Shown: positions 354-36,001 of the stretch, piece after piece
Layout of the letters: each line of letters begins with the position of its first letter
How positions within the stretch are numbered: position 1 is the stretch's first letter
Assembly (NCBI GenBank): GCA_040752415.1
Contig: JBFMGU010000100.1
Coordinates: 1-36,001 of the forward strand
Direction of reading: 5' to 3'
DNA from: Myxococcota bacterium
GTDB lineage: Bacteria > Myxococcota > JACRCW01
Length of the DNA stretch: 36,001 nt
Position numbers and translations under genes: made by a program
The notes under the pieces: generated by a model
Told to the model about the DNA's origin: nothing
What the model saw: only the letters and a program-made list of their open reading frames with translations
Database searches by the model: none

Positions 354-483
354 GCAGCCCATCCTACAGCGGTTCCCGGTGGAGTTGGCCGTGCCGGAGG
401 GTGAACCTGACACCTGCGAAGCAAGGGCCATCCTTCCCCGGCCGATCTGTTGGGAACCGCCGTAACGCGCCTCCCATGCAAGA

Positions 484-10163: not shown

Positions 10164-11912
<1,749 letters not shown>

Positions 11913-11975
11913 GGCCCCGGAGCCTAACATGGGCTCAAGGGAAAGCGTTGCCGGGGGCACCCCGGAAGGCTAGGT

Positions 11976-17154: not shown

Positions 17155-17348
17155 CGTCCTGGACCACGTTCGCGTCCAGCGCGGACGGGACGGTGGCTCA
17201 GCAACGGGCCAGACCAGGGATCACGAGGTCAAGGCGAAACGTCGCCGCCCCGTGAACGTGACGTCCTCGTCGAGGATTCAGGTTGCGCGCTGCCGCGTCC
17301 CGGCATCCCGGTTACCTCCAGCCACAACATTCTCGTCGGAGCTTGGCC

Positions 17349-18005
17349 ATGAAGGTGGTGCTCGGGATCGTGGTGTTGGTGCTGGTGATCGCGGGTGCGG
17401 TGGCGGTGGTCGACGCGCAGGGAACCTGGGGGCCCGGGAATCTGCACAACCAGCTCCAGGGCGTGGACCCCGTGGGACCCCAGGATGCCGAGGAGTCGCC
17501 CCGCCCCGTGACGCCGCAACTCAGCGCGGAGCCACCCGTTCCGGGTCCCACCAGGAACCTGCCTGGCGTTGACCGTCGGTTCCTGACGCGCGCCATCACC
17601 CAGAGCGACCGCGTGGAAGCGCTCAGCCGGATGATGCTCGACCACGACGTCAGCAATGAGGTGAAAGGCCTGGCGCAGAGCGTGATGGAGAGTCACATGC
17701 TGATCGGCGGGCGGTTGCGCACCATCGCGTCCCAGGGACGTGTCCCGCTCCGTGAGCCCGTCCTGCCGACGCCGGAGATGAAGCGCCTCGCGCGGCTCCA
17801 GGGTGAACGCCTGGAGCGTGAGTACCTCGAGACGGTGATCCGGGCACATCGTCGGGCCGCGGCCAGCTTCCAGCGACACATCACAGCCGCGCGGGATCCC
17901 GACGTGCGCCACGTGGCGGCCATGTCGCTGCCCATCCTGCAGACGAACCTGAGCGAGGCGATCCGACTGCGCAACCAGGTCCGTCGGGAGGGCGCGGGTG
18001 GGTGA
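17349..18005 (+). CDS. DUF4142-like (ferritin-like) secreted protein
   Basis: Signal peptide; DRRFLTRA, EVKGLAQSVMESH, YLETVIRAH and LPILQTNL pattern. Confidence 0.7.
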   Translation: MKVVLGIVVLVLVIAGAVAVVDAQGTWGPGNLHNQLQGVDPVGPQDAEESPRPVTPQLSAEPPVPGPTRNLPGVDRRFLTRAITQSDRVEALSRMMLDHDVSNEVKGLAQSVMESHMLIGGRLRTIASQGRVPLREPVLPTPEMKRLARLQGERLEREYLETVIRAHRRAAASFQRHITAARDPDVRHVAAMSLPILQTNLSEAIRLRNQVRREGAGG

Positions 18006-18054
18006 GGCGCGGTCCGGGTTGATGACGCCGACACCGTCACGCCGCCGTAAGTGG

Positions 18055-18314
18055 GTTCCTTCACAGCGGGAGAGCAGCTGGTTGAGCCCGAGGAGCCCGA
18101 GCCAAAGCGGCATTTCAGGCCGCACTCCCAGAGTGGCGGCCGCGCGCGTCTCACGGGGCGGAGAGGCCGCCACGCAGGGTTTCCGACGTACAACCGAGGT
18201 GCGGGCAATCTGATACAGGTGCGCGCGCGGCCCGCACCCTTGGGAGTGCGGTCTGAAGTACTGCTTTGGCTCGGGCTGTCCGGGCTCAACGAACTCCTCC
18301 ACACGTGAAGGAAC
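18055..18314. repeat. inverted doublet of a structured repeat unit (REPIN/MITE-like)
   Basis: 18081-18130 versus the reverse complement of 18241-18290 match at 43/50 by hand count, with similarity extending to GTTCCTTCAC at both ends. Two internal perfect 9-bp stems. A third copy lies at 35893-36001. Confidence 0.85.
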
Positions 18315-18362
18315 TTTGGTCACGAACCGGTAGTGCCTTCCCTGAAAACCACGGGTCACGAC

Positions 18363-19118
18363 ATGGCTGACAACGACATCGTCTTCATCACGGGTGCAAC
18401 CTCAGGCTTCGGTGAGGCGTGCGCGCGGGCCTTTGCCGCACAGGGCGCCCGCTTGGTGCTCACCGGTCGACGAGAGGAACGCCTGCGCGCCCTGAAAGCG
18501 GAGCTGAAGACGCAGGTCCACACCGTGGTGCTGGACGTGCGCGACAACGCCGCGGTGGAGCGCGCGGTGAAGGACCTCCCGCGGGAATTCTCCGACGTCA
18601 CCATCCTGCTCAACAACGCCGGCCTGGCACTGGGATTGGGGCCCGCGCACAAGGTGAGCCTGCAGGACTGGGAGACCATGGTGGACACCAACATCAAGGG
18701 TGTCCTCTACGTCACGCGCGCGTTGCTGCCCGGCATGGTGGAGCGCAACCGCGGTCACATCATCAACCTGGGCAGCGTGGCGGGGACGTATCCCTATCCC
18801 GGCGGCAACGTGTATGGCGCCACCAAGGCGTTCCTGCACCAGTTCACCATGAACCTGAAGGCCGACCTCGTCGGGACGCGCGTGCGCGTGACCACCATCG
18901 AGCCGGGAATGGCTGAGACGGAGTTCTCCCTGGTGCGCTTTGGTGGCGACGCGGAGAAGGCGAGGGCCGTCTACCAGGGCATGCAGCCGCTCACGCCGCA
19001 GGACATTGCCGACGCCGTGCTGTGGTGCGCGACGCGGCCCGCGCACGTGAACATCAACGCCATCGAGATCATGCCGGTGGCCCAGGGCTTCAGTCCCTTT
19101 GCCGTGCATCGCGGTTGA
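18363..19118 (+). CDS. NADP-dependent SDR, YdfG-like
   Basis: ITGATSGFG, NNAGLALG, YPGGNVYGATK, IEPGMAETEFSLVRF and PAHVNIN. Confidence 0.9.
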   Translation: MADNDIVFITGATSGFGEACARAFAAQGARLVLTGRREERLRALKAELKTQVHTVVLDVRDNAAVERAVKDLPREFSDVTILLNNAGLALGLGPAHKVSLQDWETMVDTNIKGVLYVTRALLPGMVERNRGHIINLGSVAGTYPYPGGNVYGATKAFLHQFTMNLKADLVGTRVRVTTIEPGMAETEFSLVRFGGDAEKARAVYQGMQPLTPQDIADAVLWCATRPAHVNINAIEIMPVAQGFSPFAVHRG

Positions 19119-32237: not shown

Positions 32238-32680
32238 TCACTTTCGCGCGCCTGGTGTGTGGCTGCGGTCATGAGTCCGTGGTGGCCTTCAGTTGCAGGC
32301 GGCGCGGCATTTGCTCGTCGTGCATGGGAAGAATGACCCAGGAGGAGGCGGCCCATCTCGTCGGGAAAGTGCTTCCCCACACGCCGTATCGGCAGTGGGT
32401 GGTGAGCTTCCCCTTCGAGGTCCAGCGGGCCTTGTCCTTCCGGCCGGACGTGCTGGCGCGGGTCGACGCATGGTGCTGGACCACCTGCGGCGGTTCTTGG
32501 AGAGCGCAGTGGGGGCGAGTCCGGCGGCTTGCTGGTGCGCCAGTGGCGAGCGTGGACGGGCTCAACCTGTACGCTTCAGGGGTCATGGCGGACCGCGCCC
32601 ACCTCGAGCGCACGGCGCGCTACGTGCTGCGACCGCCCTTTTGCGCTCGGACGGTTTGCCCAGCGGCCCGACGGGCTCAT
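32238..32680 (+). mobile_element. IS91-family (Y2 HUH) transposase relic 1, internally deleted and truncated
   Basis: Zn-binding FARLVCGCGHESVVAFSCRRRGICSSC...VLPHTPYRQWVVSFP, joined to DGLNLYA...DRAHLERTARYVLRPPF; the HUH segment is missing. Confidence 0.85.
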
Positions 32681-32704
32681 GATCAGAGGCGTTCCACGGG
32701 CGGT

Positions 32705-33787
32705 TCATCGAGGCTGGGGAGTCGCCGGTGTCGCCAGTGCGCCGAGGCTCAACTCCACCAACGCGGTTGCCTCCTCGGACCGGTTCGTTGGCCCACCGGC
32801 GTCCCAGAACGCCTGGAAGGTGAACGTCCGCTCCTCCGTGGCGGGATCCCGGTGCACCCGCAGTGCCACGCGGTCGGCGGCCTCGAGGGAATGGAAGCCC
32901 GTTCCGACACGGGTGCGAGGGACTGCGGTGACCAGGACCCCGTCTTCCGGGCGTGGCGCGCCGCGCAGAAAGGCACCCTCGAACCCCGGCTGCAGTACGG
33001 GGTGATCCAGCCCACCCGCCACCTCGATGACCAGCGCCGGGCGCTCTTCGCCCGCCATGGCGCCCACGCTCAGCGAGGTGCGGCTGGGATCGTTGTGCAC
33101 CGACAAGCTCTCGGTGACATCGACGGCGAACATCCCCGCCAGGTTGCCGGTGAGCCGCGCGCCCAGGCCGCAGATGTAGCCGGTGGGGAGCCAGCGGCCG
33201 TCTTCCACGGGTTCCGCCTCGACCGCGATGTCGAAGCTGCCCGTGAGCAATTCGTCATCTTCGCCCTCCAGCCTGAACTCGACGCGGCGCCAACCCGATA
33301 GTCCCGCGGGGCGGACGTTCACATCAACCTTGCTCGCGCTGACGTCATGCTCCCACCCGCCCGGTGTGCCGGTGGCGCACAGCATCGCGGAGGTCGCATG
33401 GTACCTGCAGCCTGGCGTCGTCTCGGTCGAGCGGAAGCCCTCCCGGTCCTCCCACGACGTCAACGACGACATCCCGTCAATGGAGACCGCTGCCATGGCC
33501 CCTCCCTGCGGGGACCGGCTCGCAACCCTGAACAAGAGCACGTCATTCCGGACGTCGCCGCGAGCGAAGACTTGTTCGGTGCCGATGTCCGACACACCGC
33601 CCATGCGACCCTGGATACGCGTATTGGTGATGCGGCTGGCACCCCTCCCGACCGCGTGCAGAAGCCACGCGTCCATCTGTTCGGTGTCGGACGACCGGGG
33701 ACGCGACGCATCCGTGCCGAGTCCCCCGCAGGCAACAGAAGCCAGGAGCGCGCCCAGCAGCACAGCCCCGGAAATCCACGTGCGCAT
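32705..33787 (-). CDS. hypothetical lipoprotein
   Basis: GGAGGA RBS; lipobox LLASVAC; 360-aa beta-rich ORF with no family I recognise. Confidence 0.7.
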   Translation of the reverse strand: MRTWISGAVLLGALLASVACGGLGTDASRPRSSDTEQMDAWLLHAVGRGASRITNTRIQGRMGGVSDIGTEQVFARGDVRNDVLLFRVASRSPQGGAMAAVSIDGMSSLTSWEDREGFRSTETTPGCRYHATSAMLCATGTPGGWEHDVSASKVDVNVRPAGLSGWRRVEFRLEGEDDELLTGSFDIAVEAEPVEDGRWLPTGYICGLGARLTGNLAGMFAVDVTESLSVHNDPSRTSLSVGAMAGEERPALVIEVAGGLDHPVLQPGFEGAFLRGAPRPEDGVLVTAVPRTRVGTGFHSLEAADRVALRVHRDPATEERTFTFQAFWDAGGPTNRSEEATALVELSLGALATPATPQPR

Positions 33788-33816
33788 GTTTCCTCCGACG
33801 CAGCATGAATGCTGAC

Positions 33817-33832
33817 TGCAAGCCGGATGCCC
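33817..33832 (-). promoter_or_regulatory. sigma54 (-24/-12) promoter candidate
   Basis: gGGCAtccggcTTGCA with exact spacing, about 30 nt upstream of the lipoprotein ATG. Confidence 0.55.
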
Positions 33833-34047
33833 GCAGGGCAGGGTGGCATTCGCGTGAGTTAGGGAGGGAATCGTGTGGAGACGATGTGGCCGGGGTTGGA
33901 GCCATGCGGTTGGCGGGGTGTTGTTGGTGTGGCCTTCTCGTGATGGAACAAGCCGCGAGCGGTGTCACCTCGCTCCTGCCACCCCGCGGCGCCACCCCGC
34001 GCGCAATGATGTCCTCCACACGTCTGACGGCGTGAAACGCGAGGTCC

Positions 34048-34747
34048 TCATGGTCGCCCGCCGGCGCACTGCGAGGAGAAGTCCGACTCCCGAACGCCCG
34101 TGACTCCGGCAGCAGCCAACGCGGCGAAGAGCGGAACCACGATGGCCCCGAGGCCCAGCAGCACGGCCACTTCGCAGGCGATGCCGCCCGCGCCCCAGAG
34201 GACGAGTAACAGGATCGCCAGTGTCAGCCGAGCCGGCGCGCAGCTGGTAGGCCACCAGCAAGATGGCAAGAACCCCCAGGTAGGGTGGCGCCACCGCGCC
34301 GGCGACCCAGGCTGCCACCACCACGCCACCTGCCACATCCCACGTCGCCCACGCGAGGGGAAGCCGCAACGCGGGCCAGCCCCACTTGCGGGGCCAGAGC
34401 GCGACGCGCATCAAGGGTGGCAGAAGGAGCCGCGCGAGGACGAACCCGGGCCACCCGGCGAAGAACGCCACCAGCGGAAGGCCAAAGAACCAGATCAGCG
34501 TGTCACCCATGCCGGAGTACTCATGGGTGGAGCGTGCGGACAGGTACGTCCAGACCGCAGCCCCCATCGCGCCTACGACGGCGTAGGCCAGGAAGGACGC
34601 GAGATTCATCCCCACGACGAACGCGATCACCTCCCGGGCCACCGCTGAACGCGAGGGGCGGTCGGCGTCATCCGCAGCCGCGCACGCCGCCTCAGTGGCT
34701 TGGGGCGTCGCACCCGTCAACACAGTCGCCAAGCACAACGCCAACAT
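34048..34747 (-). pseudogene. frameshifted multi-pass membrane protein
   Basis: MLALCLATVL... hydrophobic helices run to ...LLVAYQLR; the hydrophobic sequence continues in another frame (LTLAILLLVLWGAGG..., stop 34048). The shift is near 34240. Confidence 0.5.
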
Positions 34748-34842
34748 GAACAACCCCCTGACGCCCACGAGGTATGCACCCGCGCACTGCAAGCGGTGCA
34801 CCAGTTCGTGGGTGAGGGCGGCTTCGCGGGACGGAGGCATCC

Positions 34843-34898
34843 AACCCTTGGTGCTGGCACGGTTCGCCCGCGGGCCCGACGGGCTCATCACCTACCGG
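34843..34898 (+). mobile_element. IS91-family transposase relic 2 (short diverged fragment)
   Basis: PLVLARFARGPDGLITYR parallels PFALGRFAQRPDGLITY in relics 1 and 3. Confidence 0.6.
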
Positions 34899-35008
34899 AA
34901 CGGGGCTGCGCACCTGCGGGACATGTCGGCTGCGTGAGGAACCGGCGGGGCCCGCCGCGCCCACACTCCCGCTCGCAGTCCGCGCGCTTCGACGAGGCGT
35001 GAGCGCCT

Positions 35009-35270
35009 TCACTCCGCCTCGCAGATGAACGGCAGGCGGCGGTAGCACTCGGAGTCGTTCCAGGTGGCGGCGGGATAGAAGGCGTTGATGGTGGCGCAGT
35101 CCTCGCCATGTTGGTGGTTGGGCTCATTGGTGGCAGCGTTCCAGTTCCCATGGCTGCTGCTGCCCGACCCAGACGAAGTCATCCTCGTCGTTGCGATCGT
35201 TGTAGCCGATCCACCACTGCCCCGCGGCGAGCGGCCGCTCGGTGCTGCTCCGCCACGCGTTCTCGTCGGG
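35009..35270 (-). pseudogene. truncated, frameshifted C-type lectin domain
   Basis: Not in the ORF track. DENAW...QWWIGYNDRNDEDDFVWV /shift at ~35165/ GSSSHGNWNAATNEPNHQHGEDCATINAFYPAATWNDSECYRRLPFICEAE*. Confidence 0.85.
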
Positions 35271-35278
35271 GCAAGCTG

Positions 35279-35841
35279 GTGGCGAGCGTGGACGGGCTCA
35301 ACCTGTACGCTTCAGGGGTCATGGCGGACCGCGCCCACCTCGAGCGCACGGCGCGCTACGTGCTGCGACCGCCCTTTTGCGCTCGGACGGTTTGCCCAGC
35401 GGCCCGACGGGCTCATCACCTACGGATGAAGAAGCCGGATCGTCGGGGAAACACGGTGTTGGTGTTGGATGCGATGGCGCTGATGGCACGCCTGGCCGCG
35501 CTGATTCCCGCGCCCCGCCGACAGACGCACCGGCTCTTCGGGGTGCTGGGTCCGGCCTCCACGCTGCGCCGCCACATCGTGCCGGTCCCCACGCATCGCC
35601 AGGGACGGGCCGAGGGCCATTCCCACGACGAGCAGCCGCCTGACTACAAGCAACGCATCCCGTGGGCCGAGCTTTTGCGCCGCACCTTCGACGTCGACGC
35701 CCTGGAGTGTCCCCGCTGGCGTGAAGATTGCGGGTGGTAACGGTGGTGAAGGATCCGGCGGAGGCCCGCCGCTACGCCAGTCACATGGGCCTGTGCGAGA
35801 CCGACAGGCATGTCAGGGGCCCACCGGAGCTGGCCGCCTGA
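35279..35841 (+). mobile_element. IS91-family transposase relic 3 (3' half, several frameshifts)
   Basis: LERTARYVLRPPF, MARLAALIPAPRRQTHRLFGVLGP, IPWAELLRRTFDVDALECPR and RLRVVTVVKDP...HMGL...RGPP*. Confidence 0.88.
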
Positions 35842-35892
35842 CCTGCCTTCACCCCATCTCATGTTGCGACGCAAGGCTAAGTACCTGGCCAG

Positions 35893-36001
35893 AAGTTCTT
35901 GCACATATGTGGAGGAGCTCCGGTGAGCCCGGACAGCCCGAGCCAAAGCGGTATTTCAGACCGCACTCCCAAAGGTGCGGGCGCCGCGAGTGCCCTTTCT
36001 T
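35893..36001 (+). repeat. third copy of the 18055-18314 repeat unit, about 50 bp downstream of the IS91 transposase stop
   Basis: GAGCCCGGACAGCCCGAGCCAAAGCGGTATTTCAGACCGCACTCCCAA-GGTGCGGGC is nearly identical to the reverse complement of 18230-18290. Confidence 0.85.

Follow-up and report, generated by a model that had tools for sequence, protein, structure and literature searches.

A palindromic element between two co-directional genes

The stretch of DNA analysed here (the window) is the whole of a 36,001-nt contig, C3, from the assembly of a Myxococcota bacterium that amounts to 11.0 Mb in 520 contigs and is 96.8% complete. In this window, a gene encoding a DUF4142 protein, with its stop at 18005, is followed by a co-directional gene for a short-chain dehydrogenase (SDR) starting at 18363, and the gap between them holds a palindromic element of 281 nt (18050-18330), which has TA on both sides and has lost 12 nt of its left end. 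Judged from the alignment with its relatives in the same genome, it is an old, decayed copy, of the type called A below, of a repeat family of about 300 nt. This family probably consists of MITEs (miniature inverted-repeat transposable elements), inserting at TA within CTAG and mobilised in trans by an IS630/Tc1-mariner-type DDE transposase, which the assembly lacks.

A preliminary description of this DNA had placed at 18055-18314 two units facing each other, with conserved arms and two perfect 9-bp stems of different sequence, the whole being able to fold into a long Y-shaped hairpin. These traits have been borne out. A repeat search of the window gave inverted arms at 18072-18139 and 18232-18299 (68 nt, 79% complementary, 92 nt apart), both stems are found where they had been reported, and the RNA fold of 18050-18330 reaches -177.8 kcal/mol, compared with -120.3 +/- 5.0 for 200 shuffled sequences (z -11.4, no shuffle being as good). 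The Y shape is clear in an intact copy on contig C86 (z -26.7), which folds into a stem of about 95 bp carrying two tip hairpins. Thus, the inverted pair of units, each made of a core and a GC hairpin, would let a single strand adopt a long Y-shaped hairpin. The interval first reported is the inner part of the element, whose limits were extended by alignment to 18050 and 18330; the nhmmer match to it covers 18055-18322 of C3 (E 2e-44). A third unit near the end of the window is related to both arms, with 91% complementarity between 18224-18291 and 35921-35988 and 85% identity between 18083-18143 and 35924-35984.

An 85-codon open frame spans 18051-18308, and it had been considered that the units could be fragments of a small repeated protein-coding open reading frame (ORF) (EPGQPEPKRYFRPHSQ). 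No Pfam family was found for either of the long frames over the element, and the search for homologues among 5.8 billion proteins returned four candidates, none of them with E <= 0.001 (lengths of 46-149 aa only). Furthermore, copies of the family vary by indels of 1-2 nt, are found in either orientation, and show changes that are paired as in a helix and not codon-like, all of which argues against a coding origin, to which we give practically no credence. The Rfam search proposed in the preliminary description retrieved no family at the gathering threshold: at lax thresholds, the top match of the window region was Acido-1 (17.2 bits, the gathering threshold being 50), and ten loci of the family matched only long-hairpin look-alikes of miRNA precursors, all below threshold.

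Copies, termini and insertion sites

When the doublet was used as a blastn query, 145 merged loci were obtained in the genome, so that the copy-number check suggested earlier revealed a multi-copy family. The strict pattern of its 27-nt core (AAAGCGGYAYTTCAKRCCGCASTCCSA) has 212 matches, grouped in 129 clusters, and a relaxed version, which leaves the top of the core hairpin free, has 222 matches (9 for the reversed control) at 138 places. The strict clusters include 46 convergent doublets with cores spaced 92-148 nt, 36 lone cores at contig ends and 24 internal singles, together with some tandem, alternating or mixed arrays.

Element borders, marked here with ^, were set by the alignment of 18 full copies (the window copy and 17 others). 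The full A-type element is about 300 nt long and is bounded by terminal inverted repeats of 28 nt, CTAAGTACCTGGCCAGAAGTTCCTTCAC ... GTGAAGGAACTTCTGGCCAGGTACTTAG. An arm, the 27-nt core and a GC hairpin make up each half, and the two GC hairpins differ (GTGCCGGC type and GGTGCGGGC type). The border reads TA^AGTACCTGG..., extended as TA^AGTACCTGGCCAGAAGTTC... The 24-nt terminal repeat has 37 matches in the genome, a core being adjoined in 37/37, and immediately beyond CTAAG the flanks differ. The B-long subfamily, a sister group, is bounded as TA^CAGCGGTTCCC...GGGAACCGCTG^TA; its terminal 24 nt have 58 genome matches (up to 5 substitutions), about 44 of them after TA, and are shared with no fewer than four further MITE families in the genome. 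Among short forms of the family, similarity ends just outside the cores.

Two end types are represented among the termini at least 98% identical over 100 nt, one by eight termini and the other by seven, and their flanks all differ, except on C6 and C85, which share one. Near-identical termini in different flanks point to approximately eight recent insertions, each broken mid-element by the assembler. The third unit, formerly placed at 35893-36001, is one of the eight: it is real, starts at 35880 according to the alignment, and shows 100% identity, over 125-127 nt, with ends on C6, C475, C237 and C189. The junctions described next make the end of contig C205 its probable other end.

The insertion site was deduced by comparing filled and empty sites, which are paralogues in one genome and not orthologues. 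A second repeat family, with at least 35 copies, none of them in the window (e.g., C75:23624-23700), reads ...GGTATCCAGGGCGTGAGCCGACGCCGCAGCCGTAGGGG-CTAG-GCATTTCCACGTCGTGG..GGAAGGAAATGC-CTAG-CCCGGGGCCGACGGAGCCAC, and both of its CTAG are hot spots for young A-long insertions. The empty first site of this second family is ...GCCGTAGGGG-CTAG-GCATTTCC... (...GTAGGGG-CTAG-...); when filled, its left side reads GGGG-CTA^AGTACC (C6, C85, C241, C340 and C118) and its right side GGTACT^TAG-GCGTTTCC (C514). The same filled and empty pattern is repeated at the second CTAG (C75, C475 and C245). At the site occupied by the young copy of the window, in the 3' region of an IS91-like element, GG-CTCG-CGGATG is the empty form (C466 and C95), and GG-CTA^AGT (window) and ACT^TAG-CGGATG (C205) are the filled sides. 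As read from these junctions, the net gain on insertion is the element plus TA within CTAG, that is, insertion occurs into CTAG (or NTAN) and the central TA is duplicated. Since TA duplication within CTAG is a signature of the IS630/Tc1-type cut-and-paste process, the element is read as a MITE. IS630-family elements target TA and duplicate it, and the preference of IS630 for the TA in CTAG figures in the reference list of the same source (PMC2170065). Insertion sequence (IS) elements are likewise among the targets of RUP, a MITE flanked by TA and attributed to an IS630 element (PMC2229807).

The proximity of the third unit to an IS91 transposase gene had led to the proposal that the repeats were built from IS91-type ends and moved by a Y2 HUH transposase, which would be a rolling-circle process. 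This unit does begin about 40 nt past the end of the IS91-like frame, and GTTC and CTTG are present inside the terminal repeat. However, two other copies of this IS91-like element, on C466 (97% identical) and C95 (92%), match the window up to 35878 and then read ...CTCG-CGGATGRACCACTCC... Given that both run straight through the site, the unit is an insertion inside the IS91 3' region. The far side of this insertion, ACT^TAG-CGGATGGACCACTCC, is probably provided by contig C205 at its end, with IS91 homology persisting there for just 48 nt. Moreover, C466 and C95 diverge from each other after ...CTTGGAGTTCC, about 175 nt past the insertion point, and thus the real IS91 3' end lies beyond it. 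A core is found near only one of the nine Y2_Tnp loci of the genome, that of the window, whose IS91 gene is broken and truncated; the lack of an association with IS91, which the preliminary description had itself said would speak against its proposal, is therefore what was found. IS91 elements insert next to GTTC or CTTG, without target duplication. The borders observed here are TA^AGTACC, with TA duplicated on insertion, and the GTTCCTTCAC pointed out in the preliminary description is located about 20 nt inside the terminal repeat and not at the border. Taking these data together, an origin from IS91-type ends was rejected as very improbable, and the adjacency to the IS91 gene is, to judge from the paralogous copies, a chance insertion; the young copy entered the 3' region of a dead IS91 element recently.

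As for the dead element itself, its gene is split into a Zn_Tnp_IS91 part, from 32255, and a Y2_Tnp part at 35108-35740 (Pfam, NCBIfam). The 2.6-kb insert that separates them is bounded by a perfect 138-nt direct repeat (32543-32680 = 35279-35416) and carries two minus-strand ORFs, 32705-33787 and 33965-34891, without any Pfam match above cut-off or NCBIfam family. Another IS91 copy (contigs C458 and C466) appears to carry the 138 nt once only. The split (window 32242-35878) may have arisen from a true insertion that was accompanied by a long duplication, from recombination between two copies, or as an artefact of assembly.

Some other repeats have also been observed. A 100-nt MITE of another family, located at window positions 365-466 with the stop of a BrkB-like gene on one side and an MGMT-like gene on the other, has ends shared with B-long (TA^CAGCGGTTCCCGGTGGAGTTGGCC...GGGAACCGCCG^TA). 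A TA^CAGCGGTTCCC-ended family with a C/T-rich interior (..GGTGTTCCCCCTCCCTCTCCCCATCCCC) is found at C484:27150-27388, C334:51864, C46:71412 and C478:46155. A-type elements directly adjoin B-type doublets in at least three places (C135:67534-67930, C368:43708-44098 and C53:26747-27002), and these mixed A- and B-type arrays could reflect target preference or permissive gaps. In the window, the ORF 10840-11973 contains at 11274-11567 an aspartate-rich stretch, encoded by GAC/GAT codon repeats (13 overlapping copies of 45 nt). The features of the window element and of the region around the young copy are collected in Table 1.

Table 1. Positions in the window of the palindromic element, the young copy and their neighbouring features
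Feature	Position	Strand	Basis or remark
Upstream gene, DUF4142	17283-18005	+	stop 44 nt before the element
TA, left flank	18048-18049	.	probable target duplication of the old copy; TA^AGT border from the alignment with 17 other copies
Decayed A-type element, complete palindrome, 281 nt	18050-18330	.	alignment, nhmmer, fold
Left terminal repeat remnant, AGT..GGGTTCCTTCAC	18050-18064	+	alignment; without 12 nt present in intact copies
Left 27-nt core	18104-18130	+	mini-hairpin GCGGC/GCCGC at 18107-18123
Tip hairpin 1	18133-18173	.	9-bp stem GTGGCGGCC (18133-18141) / GGCCGCCAC (18165-18173), 23-nt loop
Tip hairpin 2	18198-18238	.	9-bp stem GGTGCGGGC (18198-18206) / GCCCGCACC (18230-18238), 23-nt loop
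Right 27-nt core	18241-18267	-	one A-C mismatch in the mini-hairpin
Right terminal repeat remnant, GTGAAGGAACTT-TGGTCACGAACCGG	18305-18330	-	alignment
TA, right flank	18331-18332	.	sequence and alignment
Downstream gene, SDR	18363-19118	+	ATG 32 nt after the element
N-terminal part of IS91-like gene (Zn_Tnp_IS91)	32242-32680	+	2.6-kb insert separates it from the remainder
C-terminal part and 3' region of dead IS91/ISCR-like element, target of the young copy	35267-35877	+	Pfam Y2_Tnp; NCBIfam ISCR clade Ia / IS91
TA of the CTA^AGT junction, young copy (target TA)	35878-35879	.	sequence, alignment
First 122 nt of the young A-type copy, stopped by the contig end	35880-36001	+	core at 35945-35971

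The core hairpin and its distribution

The core contains a mini-hairpin of 5-7 bp, GCGG-N-...-N-CCGC, whose pairs change in a concerted manner: T-A and C-G occur at pair 8-16 in 168 and 44 cores, respectively, A-T and G-C at pair 9-15 in 108 and 3, and T-A and A-T at pair 10-14 in 86 and 16. Ten of 56 doublets combine a core with T-A and a core with C-G, each being compensated within itself, which indicates that it is the local hairpin, and not the long duplex between arms, that is kept. In an alignment of 37 units, 12 of them from other phyla, 88.2% of the cells are paired, compared with 79.0 +/- 1.2 in shuffled alignments (0/500 shuffles reach the observed value), and the covariation score is 0.262, with 0.120 for shuffles and 0.004-0.109 for slid partners. 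Covariation within each core points to selection on a folded single strand, either RNA or DNA. The hairpin that follows the core (stem of at least 7 bp, loop of 19-27 nt) is present in 148/197 units genome-wide, its stem varying in sequence and maintaining its pairing. Runs of A3 and T3 bracket the core hairpins.

The distribution of the family with respect to genes depends on the type of copy. Gene context was taken from a crude GC3-based caller, which under-calls (6,259 genes on 374 contigs), and 62 of the 138 places were excluded from the count: 41 near contig ends (no more than 800 nt from them), 9 because their contigs are short, 11 that fall within called genes and are for the most part isolated cores of poor match, and 1 without a flanking gene. 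In terms of convergent, tandem and divergent gaps, A-type places are distributed as 9, 15 and 4, and B-type and mixed places as 36, 11 and 1, the background being 997, 2855 and 1019 for all intergenic gaps, 54, 286 and 202 for CTAG sites in gaps, and 2993, 7838 and 4150 for TA sites in gaps. A-type copies resemble background gaps, and the bias towards gene 3' ends therefore belongs to the older B-type doublets. The position of target sites leaves this bias unexplained, which suggests either that copies were selected once inserted or that they act at transcript ends; symmetric B-type hairpins lying between convergent genes would end or stabilise transcripts arriving from both sides. The A-type element of the window is best read as a plain insertion between co-directional genes.

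Outside the source genome, no exact copy of the core was found. The core pattern (up to 2 mismatches) was found in 0/40 relatives, only one of the genomes compared being a relative at family rank, and a B-long copy, compared by BLAST with 400 further genomes of the phylum, gave only four single weak matches (E 1.6e-5 to 5.1e-4), none with a core, which are attributed to chance. The exact core had no match (0 and 0) in collections of genomes and of metagenome contigs, from which the records of the source genome itself may be left out. Nevertheless, a relaxed doublet (AAAGCGG-N9-CCGCA, a gap of 95-125 nt, TGCGG-N9-CCGCTTT) was located at 15 loci in 8 other genomes, and 13 of these 15 loci share bases outside the query as well, namely A[C/G]T[C/T][C/G]A following CCGC and, in most cases, C[C/G] preceding AAAGCGG. 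The exceptions are one cyanobacterial and one Cytophagales locus. The doublets of the 13 loci measure 150-165 nt and, in the predicted fold, their cores form the basal stem.

The motif AAAGCGG-N9-CCGCASTCCAA, with up to one mismatch, was then counted in five metagenome-assembled genomes (MAGs), the reversed control giving 0 in every genome. Its copies number 149 in a Chthoniobacterales MAG, 87 in an Akkermansiaceae MAG, 69 in the unclassified MAG DBS2-1.bin101, 67 in a Limisphaerales MAG and 25 in an Acidobacteriota MAG. Among 200 further sampled Verrucomicrobiota, the exact motif is high-copy in one genome (24) and present in 1-2 copies in three. In the DBS2-1 MAG, doublets sit inside an element with terminal repeats of its own (CAGCAATTCTCATTTTGAT...). 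The genes between or beside cores at three places of two other genomes encode a rhodanese, a regulator of the ArsR type and proteins to which no Pfam family was assigned, with no transposase among them. The high copy number and the patchy occurrence of the motif across phyla suit a selfish family that moves horizontally and has a conserved recognition module better than they suit a host signal of universal use; the likeness between phyla may also stem from convergence towards a GC hairpin with A and T runs on either side. The Acidobacteriota genome also contains (C30) a tandem array of seven 162-nt units, in each of which two core hairpins are arranged tail to tail, with a spacer of 22 nt.

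Origin of the element

It has been proposed above that the repeats are MITEs. Their movement would require a cut-and-paste DDE transposase of the IS630/Tc1-mariner type acting in trans, which the fragmented assembly would lack; insertion takes place at CTAG (or NTAN), with duplication of the central TA. Several observations weigh against this proposal. No IS630-type DDE protein was found in the assembly (PF13358, 0 matches with 5 candidates scored; NF033545, 0 with 26 scored), which, being incomplete and broken at repeats, may have missed it, the two DDE_Tnp_1 (PF01609) matches are an IS1182-family gene and a fragment, with ends unrelated to A-long, and no longer, autonomous element with A-type terminal repeats is present in the assembly. 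With respect to the junctions, a TA duplication and an asymmetric TA-bearing end inserted without duplication would look the same, so that a single-strand mechanism is conceivable; the two sides of each insertion are on different contigs, at paralogous sites, and an orthologous empty site was not obtained because there is a single relative at family rank. The TA flanks of the old copy at 18050-18330 were read from decayed ends, and its rebuilt site is GTAG instead of CTAG. The interior core, common to subfamilies with different ends, is better conserved than the ends, whereas the ends of a usual MITE family are its best conserved part; such a pattern is not predicted by a plain origin as a deleted IS. 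Finally, a sequence scan detected neither a promoter nor a T-run terminator at the window element, and the lack of a canonical terminator counts on the same side. Other searches concerned the neighbourhood and the ends of the elements: no facing core pairs ('+ ... -') bracket 0.3-8 kb in the genome, a 23-nt B-type end located 2.8 kb from the DDE_Tnp_1 fragment is part of another MITE family, and the 19-nt terminal sequence has 13 matches in metagenome contigs, all of them unrelated, of low GC and without cores.

The form of the interior recalls that of REPINs, doublets of repetitive extragenic palindromic (REP) sequences, and the preliminary description had drawn this parallel. If the repeats were REPINs proper, the core hairpins would be REPs, the doublet would be the mobile unit, copied by a RAYT-type Y1 HUH enzyme by way of a single-stranded hairpin, and the terminal repeats would be mere outgrowths of the palindrome. 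The predominance of inverted doublets (46/129 clusters), accompanied by tandem and alternating arrays, the local covariation of the mini-hairpin, the loss of similarity just outside the cores of short forms, the 3'-end position of B-type and mixed copies (36/11/1 in gaps of 997/2855/1019) and the BIME-like alternating and tandem arrays of cores in other phyla are all in agreement with it, and the genome carries two Y1_Tnp genes. However, both genes are flanked by other, unrelated palindromes, and no core lies near either of them, the nearest being about 9 kb from the gene on C24. The head that precedes the core hairpin, at 1 nt from its foot, reads GGAG in the A-type and GGAC in the B-type, whereas canonical REPs show GT[AG]G 0-2 nt 5' of the foot (PMC6006769). 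A-long and B-long have sharp terminal repeats with TA flanks. In four other genomes, the motif was within 1.5 kb of Y1_Tnp at 0 of the best 20 of 60 loci, and the Chthoniobacterales MAG, with its 149 cores, gave no Y1_Tnp match. Thus, the inverted doublet of a covarying hairpin is real, the link to RAYT was not found, and a REPIN origin is considered unlikely. It can be added that the two Y1_Tnp genes are IS200/RAYT-like (C24:4400-7732 and C12:36-377; palindromes CCTGCCAAT...ATTGGCAGG and GCCCCGGCGCCCTTCGGGCGCTGGGGC), and that C36, C171, C93 and C357 carry further copies of the palindromic element of about 300 nt that adjoins the C24 gene, in these cases with no such gene.

It could also be argued that the repeats are structured elements kept by the host, either small RNA genes or bidirectional transcript-end hairpins, which spread by duplication and were retained for their function. 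Hairpin covariation, strong folding, the A3 and T3 runs and a 3'-end bias of B-type copies beyond the availability of CTAG/TA sites would be expected from such elements. Nevertheless, near-identical copies appear in unrelated flanks with target duplication, even inside other repeats and an IS, A-type places (9/15/4) follow the background, and occurrence among genomes is patchy; the absence of an Rfam family and of a promoter or T-run terminator in the scan points in the same direction, and makes this explanation quite unlikely. As a whole, what stands from the preliminary description is a non-autonomous, non-coding mobile repeat with a REPIN-form interior (short hairpin units in an inverted doublet, with compensatory changes), and what falls is its derivation from IS91-type ends and its mobilisation by a Y2 HUH enzyme.

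Beyond the class of the element, the more interesting point is the core common to subfamilies and phyla. It is suggested, as a tentative idea that we lean against, that the 27-nt core, C[C/G]AAAGCGG - 9-nt top - CCGCA[C/G]TCC..AA, could be the recognition module of an undescribed, horizontally spread superfamily, whose hairpin would be read by an unknown protein or RNA-level function, TA-inserting MITEs being one of its vehicles. The reasons for considering the core as a module are that it is the best conserved part, is packaged with at least two end types and recurs across phyla, where it is unlinked to the RAYT loci examined, and that it covaries and has no match in Rfam. No published description of this repeat family was found in the literature searched, subscription journals being outside its scope.

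From a practical point of view, a tested reading replaces the account of IS91 ends as a REPIN vehicle, the repeat family explains part of the fragmentation of the assembly, and ORF calls over the repeats can be flagged as spurious. In addition, a little-sampled lineage is seen to carry several TA-inserting MITE families, recently active and without a visible transposase. Should the core reflect a shared reader, be it protein or RNA, a new REP-like system would be at hand, and the older doublets located at convergent gene ends would in that case offer a test of two-way transcript ends lacking a U-tract.

Among known systems, IS91/ISCR elements resemble this family in proximity only, one copy lying after an IS91-like gene, and differ from it in ends, target, duplication and distribution. 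The likeness to REP, BIME and REPIN sequences is closer, as these share a short GC hairpin with conserved flanks, doublets of two slightly different unit types, arrays, a high copy number, an extragenic position and the 3'-end bias seen in B-type copies; unlike them, the repeats described here have no GT[AG]G head and no core-flanked RAYT gene, and A-long and B-long possess terminal repeats and TA flanks. Correia/NEMIS elements of Neisseria are TA-flanked, have terminal repeats of approximately 24-26 bp and no known transposase, lie beside genes and give transcripts that form long stem-loops (PMC2229807). The comparison with them, made by description and not by sequence, reveals differences in host phylum and size, and the passages of that source describing them (PMC2229807) include neither a Y-shaped double tip nor a covarying mini-hairpin. 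With regard to IS630/Tc1-mariner elements and the RUP of Streptococcus pneumoniae, the present assembly lacks both a transposase of the IS630 type and a parent IS whose ends match, and the element, of about 300 nt, is roughly three times the size of RUP and is best conserved in its interior instead of at its ends. In common with these systems, it has terminal inverted repeats, a TA duplication and, as IS630, a preference for CTAG; like RUP, it is non-coding, occupies at least 100 places and inserts into other IS elements.

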